Shown here in pieces: positions 11,816 to 34,234 of a stretch of DNA of 50,029 nucleotides. This stretch comes from an uncultured Candidatus Saccharibacteria bacterium. Lineage in GTDB: Bacteria; Patescibacteriota; Minisyncoccia; Minisyncoccales; GWA2-38-27. The notes below the pieces were generated by a model, which was not told the origin of the DNA, searched no databases, and saw only the letters and a list, made by a program, of their open reading frames with translations. Numbering within the stretch: position 1 is the first letter of the stretch; each line of letters opens with the position of its first letter. The position numbers and the translations under genes are program-made. The stretch lies in contig CAZDXV010000001.1 in NCBI GenBank assembly GCA_964509645.1, forward strand, positions 81,890 to 131,918, given 5' to 3'.

Positions 11816-12820
11816 ATGAGTGTAAACTTCAAAAAAGTATCAAAAGACCTGTTAAAAACTTTAGACGAAAGAACCTCTAGCATAATAGAGAGGAGGTTTG
11901 GTTTGAATTCCGGAGAAGGGGAAACTCTGGAATCTATAGGAAGGTCTTACGGAATTACCAGAGAAAGAGTAAGACAAATAGAAAAAGAGGGTTTTAATAT
12001 TGTTAAAGATAGATCTGAGAAATATCCTCAAGTTTTTGAAGTTTTTAATAAAAGCTTAGATTTAGAGGGAGGATTAAAAAAAGAGGATTATCTCCTTTCT
12101 TCTTTTGGCAAAAACAGAAATGAAATTTATTTCCTTCTTAATTTAAATAAAGATCTGGAAAGGATTCCTGAAAGCGATGACTTTTATTCTTTCTGGATCA
12201 AGAAAGGACAAGACAAAAAAGAGGTTTACAGGGCCGTGAAGACAGCCTTAAAGAAGCTCAAAGAAGAAGGCGCTTCTTTAGGTGCAGAAGAGCTTTACAA
12301 CAGGATAAAGAAGAATGTATCTTTGGATAAAAAAGCCTTTATGTCGGTTTTAGAGGCCTCTAAAAAGACGGGGAAGAATCCAGAAGGGAAATATGGATTA
12401 ACAGAATGGGTTGAAGTAAGTCCTAGGGGCATAAAAGACAAAGCTTATCTGGTTCTTAAAAAAGAATCAGAGCCTCTTCACTTTACTAAAATAGCTTTTA
12501 ACATAGAAAAATCTCCTTTCTTTAAAGACAATAAAGTCCATACGGCGACAGTTCACAACGAGCTTATCAAAGATCCTAGGTTTGTTTTGGTAGGAAGAGG
12601 AATGTATGCCTTGAAAGATTGGGGATACGAGCCCGGAGTAGTTAAAGATGTCATATCCAAGGTTTTAAAAGAAGCTGAGAAACCCCTTACTAAAGAAGAA
12701 GTTTTAGAAAGGGTTTCCCAGAGAAGATACGTAAAAGAAAATACTGTCTTTTTAAATCTTCACGACAAGAAAAACTTTGAAAGAGATTCAGAAGGAAGGT
12801 ATACTGTAAGAGAGAGCTAA
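11816..12820 (+). CDS. Sigma-70 region-4 HTH protein with a C-terminal HARE-HTH-like domain
   Basis: The N-terminus ERRFGL...TLESIGRSYGITRERVRQIEKEG is a sigma region 4.2-type HTH. The C-terminal LHFTKIA...ATVHNELIKDPRFVLVGRGMYALKDWG resembles the RpoE-delta/HARE winged helix. Confidence 0.65.
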   Translation: MSVNFKKVSKDLLKTLDERTSSIIERRFGLNSGEGETLESIGRSYGITRERVRQIEKEGFNIVKDRSEKYPQVFEVFNKSLDLEGGLKKEDYLLSSFGKNRNEIYFLLNLNKDLERIPESDDFYSFWIKKGQDKKEVYRAVKTALKKLKEEGASLGAEELYNRIKKNVSLDKKAFMSVLEASKKTGKNPEGKYGLTEWVEVSPRGIKDKAYLVLKKESEPLHFTKIAFNIEKSPFFKDNKVHTATVHNELIKDPRFVLVGRGMYALKDWGYEPGVVKDVISKVLKEAEKPLTKEEVLERVSQRRYVKENTVFLNLHDKKNFERDSEGRYTVRES

Positions 12821-14209: not shown

Positions 14210-15829
14210 ATGTCAAAAGATATCAATTTTTTCGGACAGACAAATTACCGGAATATAAATAAGAAATTCGGTATAAAGACAGACGATAGGAGGCGCCACA
14301 TGTATGTTATAGGTAAGACCGGTATGGGAAAGACTGCCTTGTTGAAAAACATGGCTATTCAGGATATCCAGAACGGAAAAGGAATAGGGTTTGTTGACCC
14401 TCACGGAGAGGCGGCGGAAGAACTGCTTCATTTTGTTCCTTCTGAAAGAATTAACGATGTAGTATATTTTAATCCGGCAGATATTGACTATCCTATAGCT
14501 TTTAACGTTATGGAAAGGGTGGGCTTGGAACACAGGCACTTGGTGGCAGGAGGATTAATGGGCGTCTTTAAGAAAATCTGGCCCGATGTCTGGTCTGCCA
14601 GAATGGAATACATTTTAAATAACACAATTTTGGCTTTGCTGGAATATCCGGGATCTACTCTTTTGGGAATAAACAGGATGCTTTCTGATACGGATTATAG
14701 GTCAAAAGTCGTAGAAAAAATTACAGATCCTGTTATTAAAGCTTTCTGGGAAAAAGAGTTTGCCCGCTATGCTCAAAGATACGAAGTTGAAGCTACGGCG
14801 GCTATTCAGAACAAAGTAGGCCAGTTCATATCAGCGCCTGTTATTAGAAATATTATAGGGCAGGTAAAATCCTCAATGAACATAAGAAAGATTATGGATG
14901 AGAAAAAGATCCTGATTCTGAACCTTTCTAAAGGAAGGATAGGGGAGGACAATTCTACTTTGCTGGGAGCTTTACTTATTACCAAGCTTCAGTTGGCGGC
15001 TATGTCTCGAGTAGATATGCCGGAAGAAAAGAGGAACGATTTTTTCTTGTATGTAGATGAATTTCAGAACTTTGCCACAGAATCCTTTACTAATGTTTTA
15101 TCTGAAGCCAGAAAATACAGACTGGCTCTTATCTTGGGCCACCAGTATATAGCTCAGATGGAAGAGGCTGTTAGAGACGCTGTATTCGGTAATGTGGGAA
15201 CTCTGGCTTCTTTTCGGGTGGGAGCTGAAGATGCTGAATTTTTGGAAAAAGAATTTTCTCCTGAGTTTTATGCAGAGGATTTCTGTAATCTTCCCAAATA
15301 TCATATTTACTTAAAACTAATGATAGACGGGGTAGCAGGAAGACCCTTCTCTTCCAATACGCTTCCTCCTTTCCCTCTACCTCAAGAATCCCATGCGGAC
15401 AAGCTTATAAAGGTTTCCCGGGAGAGGTATGGAACCCCAAGAGAAGAGGTGGAAAAGAGCATTGCTGACTGGGCAGGCTTTATAGCAGAAGCTAAAGCTG
15501 ACAACAGCCAGGCGCCGGTTCTTCATAATGCTGTTTGTTCAGTTTGCGGAAAAGAAACAAAAGTTCCTTTCCCCCCCGACGGAAAGAGATCGGTTTACTG
15601 TAAGTCCTGTCTTAAAAAGGTAAGGAAGGGTGCGACATCTCCTGAAAAACCCAAAGAAGAAAAAGCTTCTTCTTCAGCTTCTTTAGAAAAAGCTTTAGAC
15701 GAGCAAACAGTTTCTTTTTCAGGATCTAAAAAAAATTCCAATAAGAAAAAGAAAAAAAAGGTTGATTTACCCGGTCTTAGAGAAACCCTAAAAGAGACTA
15801 TGAGCAAGTCTTCCGATGAAAACGCTTAA
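14210..15829 (+). CDS. VirD4/TraD/TraG-like (FtsK-HerA superfamily) P-loop ATPase with a C-terminal CxxC...CxxC zinc ribbon and a Lys-rich tail
   Basis: Walker A GKTGMGKT, Walker B FFLYVDEFQNF, LILGHQY. C-terminal CSVCGKETKVPFPPDGKRSVYCKSC (CxxC-x17-CxxC type ribbon). Confidence 0.7.
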   Translation: MSKDINFFGQTNYRNINKKFGIKTDDRRRHMYVIGKTGMGKTALLKNMAIQDIQNGKGIGFVDPHGEAAEELLHFVPSERINDVVYFNPADIDYPIAFNVMERVGLEHRHLVAGGLMGVFKKIWPDVWSARMEYILNNTILALLEYPGSTLLGINRMLSDTDYRSKVVEKITDPVIKAFWEKEFARYAQRYEVEATAAIQNKVGQFISAPVIRNIIGQVKSSMNIRKIMDEKKILILNLSKGRIGEDNSTLLGALLITKLQLAAMSRVDMPEEKRNDFFLYVDEFQNFATESFTNVLSEARKYRLALILGHQYIAQMEEAVRDAVFGNVGTLASFRVGAEDAEFLEKEFSPEFYAEDFCNLPKYHIYLKLMIDGVAGRPFSSNTLPPFPLPQESHADKLIKVSRERYGTPREEVEKSIADWAGFIAEAKADNSQAPVLHNAVCSVCGKETKVPFPPDGKRSVYCKSCLKKVRKGATSPEKPKEEKASSSASLEKALDEQTVSFSGSKKNSNKKKKKKVDLPGLRETLKETMSKSSDENA

Positions 15830-26776: not shown

Positions 26777-26832
26777 AGCAAACTTGTGATTGGTTCGAGA
26801 GATCGATATAGTTTAAATTCTAATTGAAAAAA

Positions 26833-27360
26833 ATGACAAATTGGACATTTAAGCAAAAATCAGATAATGATTTTATGGATTCTTTTTCTCCAGAAGTAAA
26901 GAAATATCTTGGTATTAAAGACGGGTTTCCCTCTGGAGATCCGGCACGTTGGTTATTAGATTCCTTTCAATTAATTAGTAAAGATTGGTCAAATAGTTAT
27001 GGTGATTATTCTTTTCTTGTGGTGCCAGCCTCTAAGGCTTTAGAATATTGGATTTTTAAAATTGCTGAGGATTTAGGTGTAAATACAAAAACAACAGATA
27101 AGGTTGGTGTAGTGATAGAGCGAATGGAGAAGGAGGTTGGGAAAATAACTAGTTTTCAAAATGAAAAAGAAAAGGAAGTTATTCAAAGAGATATAAATTT
27201 TTTAAAGAATTTTGTGAAAGAATATAGACATAACATTGTGCATTGCAGGAAGAAAATAGAAGGTATAGGTGCAGCAAAGAATAAAATAGCGACGATTTAC
27301 GAGAAGATCAATTCTATTACAGAAAAGTTGATTAATATAGAAAAAATTCATAGGGAATAA
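26833..27360 (+). CDS. Hypothetical protein with a HEPN-like Rx4H motif (candidate RNase/defence protein)
   Basis: 175 aa from ATG 26833. It has a C-terminal EYRHNIVHC (R-x4-H) in a predicted helical protein. It is the first gene after tRNA-Gln in the AT-rich region. Confidence 0.4.
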   Translation: MTNWTFKQKSDNDFMDSFSPEVKKYLGIKDGFPSGDPARWLLDSFQLISKDWSNSYGDYSFLVVPASKALEYWIFKIAEDLGVNTKTTDKVGVVIERMEKEVGKITSFQNEKEKEVIQRDINFLKNFVKEYRHNIVHCRKKIEGIGAAKNKIATIYEKINSITEKLINIEKIHRE

Positions 27361-27484: not shown

Positions 27485-28318
27485 TTATTTAATCGCAGGA
27501 TGTTCCCAGTATGTTTTAGATGTGTTAGGGATGTCGCTTGTAAGAAAGTTTTCCCAATTTATTTTTTCCCAGCTTTCTTTTGTTACTGTTACCATCATTA
27601 CTTTACTTATGCTTTCATTTCCATGCTGATCTACTAAATTCAAGTATGGTTGAAATACAATGCTGCTTATTTTTTTGTCTAGTACTCCAGGCAATTCCTG
27701 TAATAATTTTTTAATATCTGTCCACATTCCTCGGCGCGTCATAGCAGTGGTAAGGTTTTCGTCTGCTGTGTAGCTTATCCATAATTCATCGTTTTCAATA
27801 ACAATCTCTCTTATTCTTTTTTCTTCCATATTTGTTTTTTCGCCCATAATTTCAATTATTTTGCTCTCTATTTTTCTTTCCGGGGTATCTTCTTTAGTTG
27901 TGTGCTGTATATTAGTCTCGGCAGAAGAGTTACTACTTGTCTCCACCTTTTTATCTTTCCCTCCAATTATCAAGATAAAGACTATCAGCAAGAAAAAGAA
28001 TATCCCTAATAATATTTTTTTTGCTGTTTTATCTCTTTTTCTCTTATTTTTATTTTTACTATTTTTTTCGATGGTTTCAGTTTTCCCTTGCAAAAAACTT
28101 ATTAAAGCCTTTCTTTCGTTAGAGTCTTTAATTTGGAATTCTATCTTTTTGTTTCCGGAACTTGTTATTGCAATTTTTCCTAGAAGTTTATTTTCTGAAA
28201 CTGAAGATATTTGCTTCTTTTTAATGAATTCTTTTTTAGAGATTCCTTCTAATTCTACTCCCTCCTTATAAACTCTTAATTTGGAACCGAGTCTTTTGTA
28301 TTCTTTTAGAATTTCCAT
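27485..28318 (-). CDS. Membrane protein with an N-terminal bacterial PH-like domain (hypothetical)
   Basis: 277 aa. The N-terminal ~80 aa (RVYKEGVEL...ISSVSENKLLGKIAITSSGNKKIEFQI) resembles YokE/bPH modules. This is followed by a basic linker, one TM segment (ILLGIFFFLLIVFILIIGG) and a C-terminal soluble domain. Confidence 0.5.
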   Translation of the reverse strand: MEILKEYKRLGSKLRVYKEGVELEGISKKEFIKKKQISSVSENKLLGKIAITSSGNKKIEFQIKDSNERKALISFLQGKTETIEKNSKNKNKRKRDKTAKKILLGIFFFLLIVFILIIGGKDKKVETSSNSSAETNIQHTTKEDTPERKIESKIIEIMGEKTNMEEKRIREIVIENDELWISYTADENLTTAMTRRGMWTDIKKLLQELPGVLDKKISSIVFQPYLNLVDQHGNESISKVMMVTVTKESWEKINWENFLTSDIPNTSKTYWEHPAIK

Positions 28319-30559: not shown

Positions 30560-30723
30560 AGTTGTTATTTAATTTATGGGTTTTAGCATTAGATTGCTTT
30601 CTTTTTAGATATTACACCTCTGATTTTAAAAATCAATGTTTTGTTGCACGTAACAAAACGGAACCTTCTATAATTTGTTGAAAAAGAGATGGAAAAGGAG
30701 TAAGGTGGAATATAAAAAGATTA

Positions 30724-31695
30724 ATGGGTAAACACGAAAGAGAACAAATCGAAAAGGCGGAGAAAATTATTATTAAACTCCTAAATTCTAAAAAAATAAA
30801 TGGTGCTGATAAAAATAATCCTTGGGTCAGCCATACTTTTAATATGGCCGACAGGATCCGAAAGGATTTTTCAAATATTAAAAAAGCCGAGCACTTGGGA
30901 AATCGCTATGACAATACAGGAGATATTCTAATCCTTGCTGATAAAGATGAGTTTTTTATTGAGATAAAAATGAGTGAAACGAAAAAAGGGGTTGGGACTA
31001 AAGCTAATATCGGCCAGGATGCTCTTGCAGATAATAATCTTTTTAAAGGGAACGCTATGAAATGGAGCGATTTTAGAAAAAACAGAAAGCATAATAGGTG
31101 GGTTGATAAATATTTAGACGAATTTATGAGATATCCTAAAAAAGTTCTAAGGATAAAAAACTCTGTTTCAAGAAGGGAAGAGAAAGCTAGGCACTTAAGA
31201 AAATTGCGGAAAAAAGGTAATAAGAAAGCTACAGATATTCTTTTAAGAATTCGTGAAAAAGATAAGAAAGAAAAAATAGATTATTTAAATTATTTAGAAA
31301 GTTTTAAACAAGATAAAGAGAAGATTAGAAGATTTCTTGTTTTAATAATGTTAGGAATTCACAGAAAAGAAACTATTAGAGAATTTATAGAAAATGATAA
31401 TTTTTTGCGGGAAGCCCGGAATCTTTTTGTATATTACAGTAATACCAAAAGAGGAAAAATTATTGTTCGAAGAGAAGATGTAGGAAGCAAGATAAGAAAA
31501 ATACTTAATACTTTTTCGGAATTTAGAATAATTTTTCCTAAAAGGACTACTCATTGTAAATTAATAGGCATAAGAGGGAAAAATCAACAGCCCCTTTTGC
31601 AGATAGTTTTTCACTGGAAAAATATTGCTCAAGGAATTAAAACACCCTGTCTTAATATTTTTGATTTATCAAGTAATATCTTCACTAAATATTAA
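30724..31695 (+). CDS. Putative type II restriction endonuclease (PD-(D/E)XK-like)
   Basis: 323 aa. GDILILADKDEFFIEIKMS fits a D...E-x-K catalytic motif. It converges on, and overlaps by 11 nt, the 3' end of the DNA methyltransferase gene. No closer family recognised. Confidence 0.55.
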   Translation: MGKHEREQIEKAEKIIIKLLNSKKINGADKNNPWVSHTFNMADRIRKDFSNIKKAEHLGNRYDNTGDILILADKDEFFIEIKMSETKKGVGTKANIGQDALADNNLFKGNAMKWSDFRKNRKHNRWVDKYLDEFMRYPKKVLRIKNSVSRREEKARHLRKLRKKGNKKATDILLRIREKDKKEKIDYLNYLESFKQDKEKIRRFLVLIMLGIHRKETIREFIENDNFLREARNLFVYYSNTKRGKIIVRREDVGSKIRKILNTFSEFRIIFPKRTTHCKLIGIRGKNQQPLLQIVFHWKNIAQGIKTPCLNIFDLSSNIFTKY

Positions 31696-33523
31696 TAGGA
31701 AAAAGTTTCTCTAGCTCTGTTTTTGAAATTTGAGTATTTCCTGTAATGTTTTTTATAAATTCTAGTTTTTCCTTAGAGGAAAGTTGACTTGCAATTTTAC
31801 CGAGAGTTATTTTTTTAGAAGCTTTATTTTTTGTAAGTTTCATTCTTATTTGTTTCTGATTAGAAGAAGGAAAAATTACATTTACATGGTTTTCAGCGAT
31901 AAACTTCATTCGCGGAGGTATTACGGCTGCTTTCAACTTGGATGATTTTACAGATCCAGTGATTCTGTTTACTACTATAGCAGGGCCTATATCATAATTA
32001 TTTGTTTTGACATATTGAGGTTTTTTCCTCTCTGCCAATGATAACCTTAGTCCTTTCTCTGTAATATTATGTGCCCAAATCAAAGGGACTCCTTTTTTTG
32101 GATTATTGGTTAGAAGTTCTTTATTTTTATTCCAAACCAATCTTCCTGTTTTTGCCTCAAAATCCAAATCATGGAGCGTGACGCTTTTTTTAAAGGATTT
32201 TTGTAAATATTGAGGGTTTTCGCTAAAAATTAGAATGCCATTTTTTTTGAAAATGTAGTTTCCTTTATTTTTACCCTTTTTAAGGACAATCAACATTGTT
32301 GATTGAAGAGCTTTGTTAAAGAGCTTAGGATCATCTAATACGTGCAAGTATTCAATGTTTGTATTTTCTACTATGTATTCTCTTAATTTGGAAAAATAAG
32401 CTCCGTTGTTCATTGAGGGAGGGACAACATAAGCCAGGCAGCCTCCTTTTTTGAGCCATTTAATTCCTTGATAGATGAATAAACTAAAAATATTTACTCT
32501 TCCGTTGATTATTTCTCTGAATTTATCTTTTATCTCGTCCGATGGAGAAAATTCATAATAGGGGGGATTACCGATTACAAAGTCGTATTTACCGTAGTCT
32601 TCGTTTAATAGGGAATCAGTTTTTTTAATTGTAGCTTCCGGAATAATTTTTCTTGCTATATTAGCTAGGTTTTTATCGATATCCCATCCGAACAGATCAG
32701 GATTTTTGAAGTGTTTTTTAGCTGTGACTAAGAATTCGCCGGTTCCATTGGCAGGATCTAGAATTTTTGGATTGTTTTTATTTTTCGGAAGTTTATCAAT
32801 TAAAGCCTTTCTTATTGATCTGGGGGTGAAATATTGTCCGAATGACTTTCTGTGTTTTATATCTGTTTTTTCCATATATTCTATTGTAGCGTCGTTAAAC
32901 TCTTTTTCTTTTGTTTTTTCTTTTAATTCTTTAAAATTTCGGATGACACTAACAACTTTGCCTTGAATAGCGAGTTCTTTTGTAAAAATGGGTTTGATTT
33001 TGGGATTAGCGGGCTGAAGCCTGAAACCGCCCCTTTCTTTATATATCTTTTTAAGGGTTACTTCGTTTTCATTTATTAAAGCTATAACAGTTTCTTCGTT
33101 TTCAGCAGTTGGCTGTTTTCTAATTACTACAATATCTCCGTTAAAAATTCCTTCCTCAATCATACTATTTCCTTGGACTTTTAAGGCATAATGTCTCCCT
33201 GTTTTTGACAGTTGAGATTTAGAGACTTCTACTGTTTCAGAATCTTCAATAGCCTCAATAGGTTCTCCGGCAGCGATAGTTCCCGCCAGAGGAAGGCTTA
33301 CTAGATTATTTTTTTTATTTCCATTTAATTCTATAGATCTATGCTGGTTTTCGGTTTTTCTCAAGCATCCCTTCTCTTTTAGTGATTCTACGTGTTGGTG
33401 AACCGTAGAAACAGAAGACAACCTAAATTTTCTTTTTATTTCTTCTAAAGAAGGGGAATAATCATTTTCTTCAATATATTCTTCAATATAGTCTAGTATC
33501 TGTTTTTGCCTTTTAGTAAGCAT
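31685..33523 (-). CDS. Fusion protein: full-length LexA repressor (aa 1-197) plus gamma-class N6-adenine DNA methyltransferase (TaqI/Eco57I-like, aa ~215-612)
   Basis: LexA part: the winged HTH (SPSLEEIKRKFRLSSVSTVHQHVESLKEKG), LPLAGTIAAGEP (Ala85-Gly86 cleavage site), VQGNSM (Ser120), VTLKK (Lys158), ending GKVVSVIRNF like the LexA C-terminus. MTase part: FGQYFTP, ILDPANGTGEF (motif I), VIGNPPY (motif IV) and a TaqI_C-like target recognition region. No stop codon occurs between the two parts. Confidence 0.8.
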   Translation of the reverse strand: MLTKRQKQILDYIEEYIEENDYSPSLEEIKRKFRLSSVSTVHQHVESLKEKGCLRKTENQHRSIELNGNKKNNLVSLPLAGTIAAGEPIEAIEDSETVEVSKSQLSKTGRHYALKVQGNSMIEEGIFNGDIVVIRKQPTAENEETVIALINENEVTLKKIYKERGGFRLQPANPKIKPIFTKELAIQGKVVSVIRNFKELKEKTKEKEFNDATIEYMEKTDIKHRKSFGQYFTPRSIRKALIDKLPKNKNNPKILDPANGTGEFLVTAKKHFKNPDLFGWDIDKNLANIARKIIPEATIKKTDSLLNEDYGKYDFVIGNPPYYEFSPSDEIKDKFREIINGRVNIFSLFIYQGIKWLKKGGCLAYVVPPSMNNGAYFSKLREYIVENTNIEYLHVLDDPKLFNKALQSTMLIVLKKGKNKGNYIFKKNGILIFSENPQYLQKSFKKSVTLHDLDFEAKTGRLVWNKNKELLTNNPKKGVPLIWAHNITEKGLRLSLAERKKPQYVKTNNYDIGPAIVVNRITGSVKSSKLKAAVIPPRMKFIAENHVNVIFPSSNQKQIRMKLTKNKASKKITLGKIASQLSSKEKLEFIKNITGNTQISKTELEKLFPINI

Positions 33524-33570
33524 ATTAAGATTATTAACAGCTTAATTTATTATATCATATAATACCGAAA

Positions 33571-33587
33571 GAAAACCGAAAGTTTTC
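33571..33587. promoter_or_regulatory. Palindromic candidate operator GAAAAC-N5-GTTTTC in the LexA-MTase promoter region
   Basis: gaaaaccgaaagttttc lies 48-64 nt upstream of the minus-strand ATG (33523), next to a minus-strand TATAAT (plus-strand attata at about 33550-33555). The form resembles Cheo-type LexA boxes (GAAC-N4-GTTC). Confidence 0.4.
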
Positions 33588-34234
33588 CACATGCTTTTTC
33601 CTTGATTTTATTTCGAGGATCGTGATATATTGGAATAATTAAAAGGGGTTTTAGCCCCGACTACGAAAATTACTCTGTAATCTTCAGCCGGGGTTAACCG
33701 GCTTGTTTAATTTTGTAAATTATATGAGTAAGAAAATAAAACCAAATAAGCCAAAGTTCATGACTGCGGAAAAATCGGTCGATTAGCTTGTAAGTTCTAT
33801 AATTTCATAAGAGAAAAGATTAAGATAGTAGGAGATTCTAAGTAATAAGCTAGATAAAAATGAAAAAAAGTTTAAAAAGTAGAGAACAATTTGTAAAACA
33901 AGTAGCTTATTTTTCTCGGTGCTCAAAAGGGCTTTAAATACGAAGAAATGATTAAATGGATAGATAAAAAACTTAAAAGGGACTGGAATGAGAAAATTAC
34001 TTTACCGAGAGCAAAAATAATAATGCAGAAGAAGTATAAAGCAATAAGCTTAATAATAGATTCTGCAAGGAAATATACTTAAAAAGAACCTAAAATCGGG
34101 AAAAAGGGACAAGTCTCGAATATTCAAGGAATTTGGCTTTTTAATAAAAACTAATTGAAAAAAAAGATTATGAGTTTTAGAAAAGCGGCAATAAAAGTTT
34201 TGGAAAAATTCAAAAGACTTCTTAAAAACTGAAT

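Follow-up and report, generated by a model that had tools for sequence, protein, structure and literature searches.

The stretch of DNA analysed here, 50,029 nucleotides long and referred to as the window, contains two convergent genes, one encoding a LexA repressor joined to a DNA methyltransferase (MTase) and the other a candidate restriction endonuclease. Their layout is the following:

31685..33523, minus strand: LexA-MTase fusion gene, 612 amino acids plus stop, a single open reading frame (ORF) with Pfam and NCBIfam domains
32903..32932, minus strand: Lys/Glu-rich linker of ca 10 residues (198-207), between the LexA end ...VIRNF197 and the MTase start
30724..31695, plus strand: PD-(D/E)XK restriction endonuclease candidate, 323 amino acids, convergent with the MTase gene and overlapping it by 11 nt (31685-31695)

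The fusion ORF begins with ATG and has no internal stop (translation table 11), and the Pfam matches on the 612-residue protein are LexA_DNA_bind (residues 2-62), Peptidase_S24 (78-191), N6_Mtase (218-457) and Eco57I (283-402). The single frame and these domains bear out the in-frame fusion that had been read by the first-pass annotation of this DNA, and the 11-nt overlap given there is exact. No stop or frameshift separates the two halves here, and the junction is gap-free in an alignment of 120 homologues from independent assemblies. Unfused MTase orthologues, which share 40-63% identity and are found in many phyla, start 10-20 residues ahead of the conserved ETLEY...RKSLGQYFTP segment.

The LexA half consists of these elements:

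33338..33523, minus strand: LexA winged-HTH (wHTH) DNA-binding domain, residues 1-62 (PF01726, E = 1e-17, residues 2-62)
within the wHTH, minus strand: recognition helix, approximately residues 39-50, with specificity residue Gln43 (alignment with E. coli LexA)
32951..33292, minus strand: S24 autoprotease and dimerisation domain, residues 78-191 (PF00717, E = 4e-29)
33266-33271, minus strand: predicted cleavage site Ala85-Gly86 (from the sequence)
33164-33166, minus strand: Ser120 of the predicted Ser/Lys dyad (from the sequence)
33050-33052, minus strand: Lys158 of the predicted Ser/Lys dyad (from the sequence)

The NCBIfam lexA equivalog TIGR00498 matches this half with 189.1 bits against a cutoff of 110.95, over model positions 4-202 of 203, and residues 2-196 align end to end with the LexA structures of T. 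maritima and E. coli. The wHTH aligns with PDB entries 3k2z, 1jhh and 3jso, and since the alignment offset to E. coli LexA is +2, Gln43 corresponds to E. coli Glu45. Ala85, Gly86, Ser120 and Lys158 were found to be invariant in three alignments (A2, A3 and A5), which cover the fusion family and, in two independent sets, MTases of other classes that carry a LexA head; the S24 dyad is thus conserved. The residues and motifs named in the first-pass annotation are all present, each without variation or with at least 99% conservation in the sets of 120 and 48 homologues, and its reading of a full LexA holds in view of the equivalog-level score, the intact cleavage site and the dyad.

The other half of the protein is the enzyme:

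31688..32902, minus strand: gamma-class N6-adenine DNA methyltransferase, residues 208-612 (PF02384, PF07669; PADLOC MTase_II)

Its motifs follow the order X (FGQYFTP, 228-234), I (DPANGTGEF, 256-264) and IV (NPPY, 319-322), each at least 99% conserved, which together with the two Pfam families confirms the gamma-class N6-adenine assignment. The fold matches M.TaqI, CamA and M.BseCI with a Foldseek probability of 1.0 over approximately 430-560 aligned columns, at an identity of only ca 16%; motif order X-I-IV with NPPY is common to all of them. The overall fold gives a TM of 0.55 to M.TaqI, normalised to the target, with low AF2 confidence past approximately residue 460. The TaqI_C-like recognition domain that had been proposed is not confirmed: Pfam TaqI_C has no match on the fusion protein, and the model of the C-terminal recognition domain is poor, although the structural alignment with M.TaqI takes in the whole MTase half. 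A palindrome-avoidance scan of the window for the target of the restriction-modification (R-M) system was uninformative.

The nuclease is matched by no Pfam, NCBIfam or PADLOC model. The D67...E80-x-K82 motif is invariant in its family, in agreement with the PD-(D/E)XK-like partner suggested before, and the AF2 model has a pLDDT of 87.6. The best PDB match is the restriction endonuclease HinP1I, with a probability of 0.98 but a TM of 0.31-0.38, which is weak evidence for the fold. A homologue of the nuclease gene adjoins the MTase gene convergently in 22 of 26 fused loci and also in at least 12 unfused loci of other bacterial and archaeal phyla, while three relatives (L012, L028 and L044) have no nuclease partner. 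Because the two genes travel together across phyla, they can be regarded as a genuine R-M pair, as had been claimed, and because many bacterial and archaeal phyla have the pair without LexA, it looks from these comparisons like a mobile Type II cassette that acquired its LexA head in Patescibacteria.

Upstream of the nuclease gene the following region was noted:

30638..30674, plus strand: nuclease-gene promoter region with the inverted repeat GTTTTGTT-N6-AACAAAAC (30638-30659), then TATAAT (30669-30674), from the sequence

The inverted repeat is not kept upstream of the nuclease orthologues, where no conserved operator was found. A small HTH-type gene lies upstream of the nuclease gene in six relatives (L003, L008, L009, L018, L023 and L029), and that of L003/L004 is assigned to HTH_3 by Pfam; the copy in the window has no such gene. 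Since some relatives thus keep a C-protein ahead of the nuclease gene, the LexA head appears to be an addition to C-protein control and not a substitute for it.

A database search for LexA-MTase fusions recovered more than 120 full-length homologues in independent assemblies, with the same architecture and all catalytic motifs kept. The fusion, which had been treated as a single oddity, is in fact one of a large Patescibacteria-wide set; AP024682.1 and the Nealsonbacteria genome that encodes XOA42984.1 are among the complete genomes with a fusion. On long proteins that carry the related LexA head, a DNA MTase is present in 38 of 38 and 48 of 48 cases in two independent samples. The partners belong to the beta, alpha/D12, gamma and C5 classes, i.e. 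all four sampled in Patescibacteria; they were assigned by Pfam and best score, motif-regex and iterative jackhmmer searches having failed or merged classes. Fused forms outnumber stand-alone ones both among close relatives (approximately 50 vs 24 of 80) and among cluster representatives (approximately 38 vs 10), and one genome can have several heads: L020 is in tandem with L014, and a single MAG has both L009 and L044. Plasmid, phage and PADLOC searches returned matches that were MTase-only or LexA-only. As the close LexA heads on viral contigs are mostly stand-alone, the fusion is not mainly a phage feature.

The promoter of the fused gene contains three elements:

33565..33581, minus strand: putative LexA box, direct repeat TTTCGG-N5-TTTCGG with an 11-bp period, covering the -35/spacer region
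33549..33557, minus strand: extended -10 element TGATATAAT, 25 nt upstream of the ATG, read from the sequence
33583..33591, minus strand: DnaA-box-like element TGTGGAAAA (TGTGGATAA / TTATCCACA in relatives), abutting the LexA box

The exact direct repeat occurs once in the window, and almost every lineage has the element ahead of its fused genes. In 948 kb of flanking DNA, 39 of the 49 near-consensus matches lie at most 250 nt from a LexA-head start codon. In 50 of 53 fused genes a -10-like hexamer comes 0-13 nt after the box, such that the box abuts or overlaps the -10 element; in 14 of 82 boxes, including those of relatives L003, L004 and L018, the box is inverted and located downstream of the -10. 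Stand-alone lexA genes of the same clade (L130, L154 and L159) have the same box. No convincing further boxes were found outside lexA-type genes in a regulon search of the 948 kb of flanks and the 50-kb window, and there are no recA or uvr genes within the window. The DnaA-box-like element, also a single copy in the window, is present in 50 of 74 fused promoters as compared to 5 of 38 stand-alone lexA promoters (Fisher p = 3e-8).

The operators of LexA dimers are as a rule inverted repeats. For Alphaproteobacteria a direct-repeat LexA box, GTTC-N7-GTTC, is established (PMC8565304), and its 11-bp period is that of the box of the fusion. We have also considered a palindromic LexA box in the window promoter, GAAAAC-N5-GTTTTC, and rejected it, the direct repeat being conserved across lineages instead.

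The box was found to co-vary with the recognition helix. Residue 43 partitions perfectly with half-site positions 5-6: Gln or Glu occurs with GG (35/35), Phe, Tyr or His with GA or TA (34/34), and Lys with GC (5/5). This comparison took in gamma, beta, alpha and C5 fusions as well as stand-alone forms, and among all 205 positions of the head it is residue 43 that has the highest mutual information with the half-site. It is important to point out that the promoter lies next to the head and is passed on with it, for which reason part of the covariation could be due to co-inheritance. The idea of methylase autoregulation raised in the first-pass annotation gains comparative support from this direct-repeat box, through its place at the core promoter and its covariation with the recognition helix.

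From the sequence comparisons we consider it rather probable that the LexA head serves as a self-cleavable autorepressor of the methylase gene in a Type II R-M pair, and that its damage-induced de-repression would lead to restriction alleviation. We infer the DNA binding, the repression, the RecA-dependent cleavage, the direction of the effect and the SOS coupling of the methylase as follows. The head most likely dimerises and binds TTTCGG-N5-TTTCGG at its own promoter. Because the predicted box covers the -35/spacer region there, the methylase would repress its own synthesis, with a high output upon entering a naive cell and homeostasis afterwards. Activated RecA would then trigger self-cleavage of the fusion, which is to be expected from the strict conservation of the Ala-Gly site and the Ser/Lys dyad, and the DNA-binding domain would be released from the S24-MTase body. 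The promoter would in this way be de-repressed and the methylase output raised, and convergent transcription might lower the nuclease output too. In net effect, DNA damage would alleviate restriction in a Type II system. Degradation of the S24-MTase fragment after cleavage could reverse this outcome, and a resident stand-alone LexA of the same specificity would also repress the fusion promoter.

Another option is that the fused protein is the principal or only LexA of the cell and rules the whole SOS regulon, the methylase being a passenger; loss of the cassette would then remove SOS repression, making it an addiction device. The head is indeed a LexA equivalog by score, NCBI names such fusion proteins 'transcriptional repressor LexA', and fused forms are in excess among close relatives. 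Because same-clade stand-alone lexA genes share the box, the fused head should recognise any genomic SOS box. We nevertheless find this scenario unlikely, as boxes were seen only before lexA-type genes in the flanks and window searched, some genomes have two or more heads, the cassettes look mobile, and the diversification of half-sites would hardly be tolerable for a regulon-wide repressor.

The conserved cleavage machinery could also act as a kill switch, in which RecA activation, e.g. by broken phage or host DNA, destabilises the S24-MTase fragment, methylation drops and the stable nuclease attacks the chromosome, comparable to abortive infection or post-segregational killing. ClpXP and Lon degrade the fragments of cleaved LexA in E. 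coli, and the N-terminal fragment of the fusion would have ...IAA as its last residues, which we take to be similar to the ...VAA degron of E. coli. R-M systems are moreover described as behaving like toxin-antitoxin modules in which the methylase is the antitoxin (PMC3874152). De-repression of the promoter, on the other hand, would resupply full-length methylase at once, and three relatives have no nuclease partner at all; we regard the kill switch as quite improbable.

To an even smaller extent do we credit the case where the head only binds DNA and dimerises, in the service of constitutive autoregulation or tethering and comparable to the N-terminal region of M.SsoII, with self-cleavage having no signalling role. 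Protease-free autoregulating MTases exist (PMC3874152), and the operator evidence by itself needs no cleavage. However, throughout the fused families examined (well over 100 sequences, four MTase classes) the Ala-Gly site, Ser120 and Lys158 never vary, which is hard to account for unless proteolysis is under selection. Finally, it can for all practical purposes be ruled out that misassembly, a frameshift or the loss of a stop codon in one contig created the fusion, because in spite of frameshifted or split genes in a few relatives (L018, L044 and L055) the same ORF with its gap-free junction recurs in the independent JGI, ENA, NCBI and Logan assemblies, with 23 uninterrupted species-representative copies, at 53-98% identity.

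The autorepressor that we favour shares with the SOS repressor LexA (MEROPS S24; TIGR00498) the wHTH and S24 domains, the Ala-Gly site, the Ser/Lys dyad and a box at its own promoter. It differs in bearing a 405-residue DNA methyltransferase covalently at its C-terminus, and in a regulon that is seen only at its own promoter within the flanks and window searched. M.SsoII-type autoregulators are C5 enzymes whose N-terminal region is short, and they are not known to carry a protease. Self-repression at the promoter is documented for M.EcoRII, M.SsoII and M.ScrFI (PMC3874152). As in these enzymes and M.Ecl18kI, the methylase polypeptide itself would hold the promoter-repressing DNA-binding function and set the M:R balance. 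The parallel is functional only, since the present protein is a gamma-class N6-adenine MTase with a full 197-residue LexA including the protease domain; the fusions carry a whole LexA, predicted to be signal-cleavable, on gamma, beta, alpha and C5 enzymes.

C-protein R-M systems likewise have a dedicated HTH regulator that times R and M, with specificity classes that can make systems incompatible, but C-proteins are encoded by separate genes, usually upstream of R. Lambda CI and SXT SetR, also of the S24 type, are RecA-sensitive self-cleaving repressors that put a mobile module under SOS control; these are free-standing phage or ICE repressors and not enzyme-fused. With Type I restriction alleviation, where ClpXP degrades HsdR, the link would lie in the proposed shielding of new unmodified host DNA during repair, the mechanism being a wholly different one. 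We know of no Type II equivalent of damage-induced restriction alleviation.

The fusion architecture is apparently undescribed, as had been supposed: no description was found in the searchable full-text literature. A 2017 study by Sanchez-Osuna, Barbe and Erill (Environ Microbiol 19:3465), which lies outside that search, reportedly treats the SOS network of Patescibacteria. Public labels of 'LexA' or 'methyltransferase' alone would mislead reconstructions of SOS regulons and censuses of R-M systems.

In an R-M system the toxic nuclease has to be kept in balance with the protective methylase, for which C-proteins, self-repressing methylases and antisense RNAs are the known means of control. A methylase with an intact RecA-sensitive LexA would directly link the DNA-damage signal to the balance of a Type II system, and the fusion would provide a concrete case on which to test restriction alleviation in Type II systems or, as the alternative, damage-triggered suicide. 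The code relating residue 43 to the half-site provides a natural system for the evolution of LexA specificity and for the reading of direct repeats by a LexA dimer. A wider scenario is conceivable, and we offer it tentatively: Patescibacteria may have recruited the SOS repressor repeatedly as a cis-fused, damage-cleavable controller of every R-M methylase class. Helix and operator specificities would have split into orthogonal groups (Q/E-GG, F/Y/H-GA or TA, K-GC) acting like C-protein incompatibility groups, DnaA-type boxes would couple methylase supply to damage and replication, and some reduced genomes may have the fusion as their only LexA, tying SOS to R-M maintenance. Patescibacteria have tiny genomes and few CRISPR systems and are thought to lean heavily on R-M; with LexA heads on all four methylase families sampled in such hosts, the fusion may be a principal way of regulating R-M across a large part of the bacterial tree.

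The open reading frame at 31685..33523 on the minus strand of the window runs uninterrupted from an ATG start over 612 amino acids, with no internal stop, and the fusion proposed in the first-pass annotation is thus a single gene. Pfam assigns four domains to its product:

Residues 2-62, LexA DNA-binding domain (LexA_DNA_bind)
Residues 78-191, S24 peptidase (Peptidase_S24)
Residues 218-457, N6-adenine methyltransferase (N6_Mtase)
Residues 283-402, Eco57I domain (Eco57I)

The N-terminal part, called the head below, scores 189 bits against TIGR00498, the NCBIfam equivalog model for LexA (cutoff 111), which is matched almost end to end, and the LexA crystal structures of T. maritima and E. coli align to residues 2-196 without large gaps. 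Pfam domains, model score and structure alignment thus agree with the earlier reading of a complete LexA. The residues named there are also where they had been placed, namely Ala85-Gly86, Ser120, Lys158, FGQYFTP, DPANGTGEF and NPPY. The gamma class of the methyltransferase (MTase) was likewise borne out, but the TaqI_C-type recognition domain was not, as Pfam does not call TaqI_C in this protein. The AlphaFold model is poor past approximately residue 460; the MTase half as a whole superimposes on M.TaqI, CamA and M.BseCI in structure comparison. A linker of ca 10 residues joins the two halves almost directly.

A search of 5.8 billion proteins yielded at least 120 full-length homologues of 601-639 amino acids from JGI, ENA, NCBI and Logan assemblies, with 66-73% identity and the identical domain set. 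They show at least 99% conservation at the cleavage site, at the Ser/Lys dyad and in MTase motifs X, I and IV, conservation is about equal in the two halves, and the junction, singled out earlier as the point to verify, is gap-free in homologues from several assembly sources. Among the GTDB species representatives scanned, the arrangement occurs in 26 genomes, with the frame uninterrupted in 23 (53-98% identity). Taken together, the homologues, the conserved motifs, the gap-free junction and the 26 genomes indicate that the fusion is real and under purifying selection. All informative record titles are from Patescibacteria (Nealson-, Portnoy-, Wolfe-, Buchanan-, Magasanik- and Doudnabacteria, and Paceibacterota). 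Apparent frameshifts were seen in some of the related loci (L001-L160, homologous genes with their flanks in other assemblies): in the LexA N-terminal domain of L018 (AP024682.1, a complete genome; 10001-10589), in the MTase of L055 (10487-11688), and in the nucleases of L016 (5356-6299) and L005 (1910-2877), the last in a relative 98% identical to the window organism. Parts of the cassette have either decayed in these loci or been sequenced with errors.

We now turn to the convergent neighbour at 30724..31695 on the plus strand, whose 11-nt overlap with the fused gene is exact. It has no match in Pfam, NCBIfam, PADLOC or PDB sequences, and the ca 210 members of its family are all labelled hypothetical; D67...E80-x-K82 is invariant among them. 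The AlphaFold model is confident (pLDDT 87.6), and its best PDB match is the restriction enzyme HinP1I (probability 0.98, with a weak TM of only 0.31-0.38), the remaining weak matches likewise being PD-(D/E)XK nucleases. The strongest evidence for a restriction-modification pair is the genomic pairing. A homologue of the nuclease adjoins the MTase convergently in 22 of 26 fused loci, and a LexA-free pair is found in Aminicenantes, Acidobacteriota, Chloroflexi, Zixibacteria and several archaea (40-63% identity to the window MTase, 29-45% to the nuclease). The pairing claimed at first reading is upheld by this together with the motif and the weak fold match. The occurrence of the LexA-free pair in other bacterial phyla and archaea further indicates that the two genes form a horizontally mobile Type II cassette, and that the LexA head was acquired inside Patescibacteria.

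Five fused loci (L003, L008, L009, L018, L023) and one unfused locus (L029) have a small gene, probably encoding a C-protein, immediately before the nuclease gene; it is HTH_3 by Pfam in L003/L004 and is recognised elsewhere by a conserved C-terminal peptide. The window copy has no small HTH-type gene at this position. Before its nuclease gene, within 30638-30674 (plus strand), a perfect inverted repeat, GTTTTGTT-N6-AACAAAAC, is closely followed by TATAAT; the repeat is not conserved upstream of nuclease orthologues. No terminator is predicted between the convergent genes. A plus-strand terminator-like hairpin at 33686-33703, just past the methylase promoter, could stop read-through from the nuclease gene that runs antisense over the whole methylase gene.

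The surroundings are ordinary chromosome (murB, secA, secDF, pgk, murJ, lepA, prfB, ftsEX, a class II aminoacyl-tRNA synthetase gene and ldh). Four other genes of the window are unusual:

11816-12820, plus strand, protein joining Sigma70 region 4 and HARE-HTH
14210-15829, plus strand, TrwB/TraG/HerA-like NTPase with a treble-clef zinc finger
26824-27360, plus strand, frame weakly matching the RnlA-toxin DNA-binding domain
27485-28318, minus strand, ORFan with a weak PADLOC PD-T4-6 match

LexA-MTase fusion is a general phenomenon. In an exhaustive HMMER search with the head against 1.84 billion cluster representatives, its closest relatives (41-68% identity) are mostly N-termini of 331-890-residue proteins that do not match the window MTase, and LexA proteins of ca 200 residues make up only about ten clusters. 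All 38 long proteins examined carry LexA_DNA_bind, S24 and a DNA MTase (N6_N4_Mtase 26, D12 5, Eco57I/N6_Mtase 5, C5 DNA_methylase 2). In an independent scan of metagenome contigs by head-only alignment, ca 50 of 80 heads are fused; both LexA domains are present in 48/48 fused frames, with MTase matches to N6_N4_Mtase (30), C5 (6), D12 (6) and gamma (5). Neither set shows any variation at Ala-Gly, Ser or Lys. The fusions sought in databases thus exist on gamma, beta, alpha/D12 and C5 MTases, labelled at source 'transcriptional repressor LexA' or 'site-specific DNA-methyltransferase'. No record among 72,556 plasmids and 50,697 phages covers both halves, and close heads on IMG/VR contigs are mostly stand-alone.

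An apparent second LexA near the gene in L020, L014 and L046 proved to be a further fusion. In L020 (7338-9761) and L014 (171-2241), a second cassette immediately upstream of the gamma fusion joins LexA to a D12 (Dam-like, alpha-class) MTase, so that a single locus holds two LexA heads. Each D12 fusion has its own convergent 264-residue partner, without Pfam or PADLOC match and presumably the nuclease of that cassette. The L020 cassette has its own TTTCGG-N5-TTTCGG promoter, while that of L014 has lost N-terminus and promoter at a contig end. L046 (6482-9871) encodes a 1129-residue triple fusion, in which a LexA head precedes a beta N6_N4_Mtase and a gamma N6_Mtase that includes TaqI_C. After it come an orthologue of the window MTase in unfused form and a convergent 308-residue gene that is unrelated; much the same unfused cassette is present in L042, together with a divergent 220-residue LexA-like gene. 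In L026 (9393-11240) the MTase half is 70% and the head only 35% identical to the window protein; Pfam finds S24 and not LexA_DNA_bind, the promoter has no direct repeat, and the protein looks like a case of a swapped DNA-binding module. In five loci (L090, L122, L114, L126, L044) a 'stand-alone' lexA is directly followed by an MTase frame; these are operon or split forms, which look like either fusion precursors or fission products.

A tandem direct repeat of 11-bp period precedes the fused gene in almost every lineage. The window box, TTTCGG-N5-TTTCGG at 33565-33581, is the sole exact copy in 50 kb, and that of L010, L013 and L017 is GTTC-N7-GTTC, spaced as in the LexA box established for Alphaproteobacteria (PMC8565304). 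Of 53 fused genes whose box is forward-oriented, 50 have a -10-like hexamer 0-13 nt after the proximal half-site, which places the distal half-site at about -35; a dimer bound at the predicted box would therefore occlude RNA polymerase. Across 948 kb of Patescibacteria DNA there are 49 near-consensus sites, and for 39 of them a LexA-head start codon is no more than 250 nt away. In ten loci (L003, L004, L018, L106, L113, L116, L122, L126, L130, L152) the box is inverted (AATCGAAAATAAATCGAAA) and sits after the -10 element and before the start codon, adjoining a conserved GTCAA, an operator geometry unlike the majority's.

Both half-site copies vary together among loci, and they vary with head residue 43, which aligns with the base-contacting Glu45 of E. 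coli LexA. At half-site positions 5-6, GG goes with Q/E (35/35), GA or TA with F/Y/H (34/34) and GC with K (5/5), a perfect partition that extends to gamma, beta, alpha, C5 and stand-alone forms alike. Among the 205 head positions, mutual information is highest at residue 43 (1.35 of 1.75 bits, a signal that co-inheritance of promoter and head could inflate), followed by residues 57, 47 and 41, all in the DNA-binding domain. Despite possible co-inheritance, the concentration of covariation on a contact residue of the recognition helix speaks for binding of the box by the head. Co-resident cassettes with unlike boxes (L020 with TTTCGG and TATCGG; L009 with L044) might, speculatively, form orthogonal specificity groups analogous to C-protein incompatibility.

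A DnaA-box-like 9-mer, TGTGGA[A/T]AA (complement of TT[A/T]TCCACA), flanks the window box at 33583-33591 (minus strand) and recurs in L001-L025 and L085-L160 promoters, once or twice and in either orientation. Of the fused-gene promoters 50/74 have it, versus 5/38 of those of stand-alone lexA genes (Fisher p = 3e-8; background 0.018 per 140 nt), a difference that points to control of the methylase genes linked to replication.

In the model that the evidence supports best, the methylase represses itself through a repressor module that the SOS signal can cut off. Architecture, gene pairing, conservation, box position and covariation are observed; head binding, repression, RecA-dependent cleavage and its consequence are inferred. 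The head would bind the box, so that the methylase represses its own promoter, and RecA-dependent cleavage would then sever the repressor module. M.SsoII and M.EcoRII follow the same self-repression logic (PMC3874152), to which the window fusion would add a LexA-type switch. Could the fusion instead be the cell's global LexA? The LexA score of the head favours this, and the box is shared with true stand-alone lexA genes (L130, L154, L159), for which reason it is probably the general LexA box of the clade. However, genomes can carry multiple heads, the cassette is mobile and its specificity diversified, and a search of the window and the 948 kb found no box before genes other than those of lexA type. 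Another option is that cleavage destabilises the methylase and leads to nuclease-mediated death. A third option, that cleavage is irrelevant, is made less likely by the invariance of the catalytic residues.

The two components are already known, as are the two regulatory ideas. What appears to be new is the covalent LexA-MTase combination, together with its occurrence on all MTase classes, in line with the earlier impression of an undescribed architecture: our full-text literature search, with a Patescibacteria SOS-network paper outside its scope, found no LexA-MTase fusions. In the self-repression model, the favoured outcome of cleavage is de-repression and more methylase, with the nuclease possibly lowered through convergent transcription, which would amount to Type II restriction alleviation during repair.
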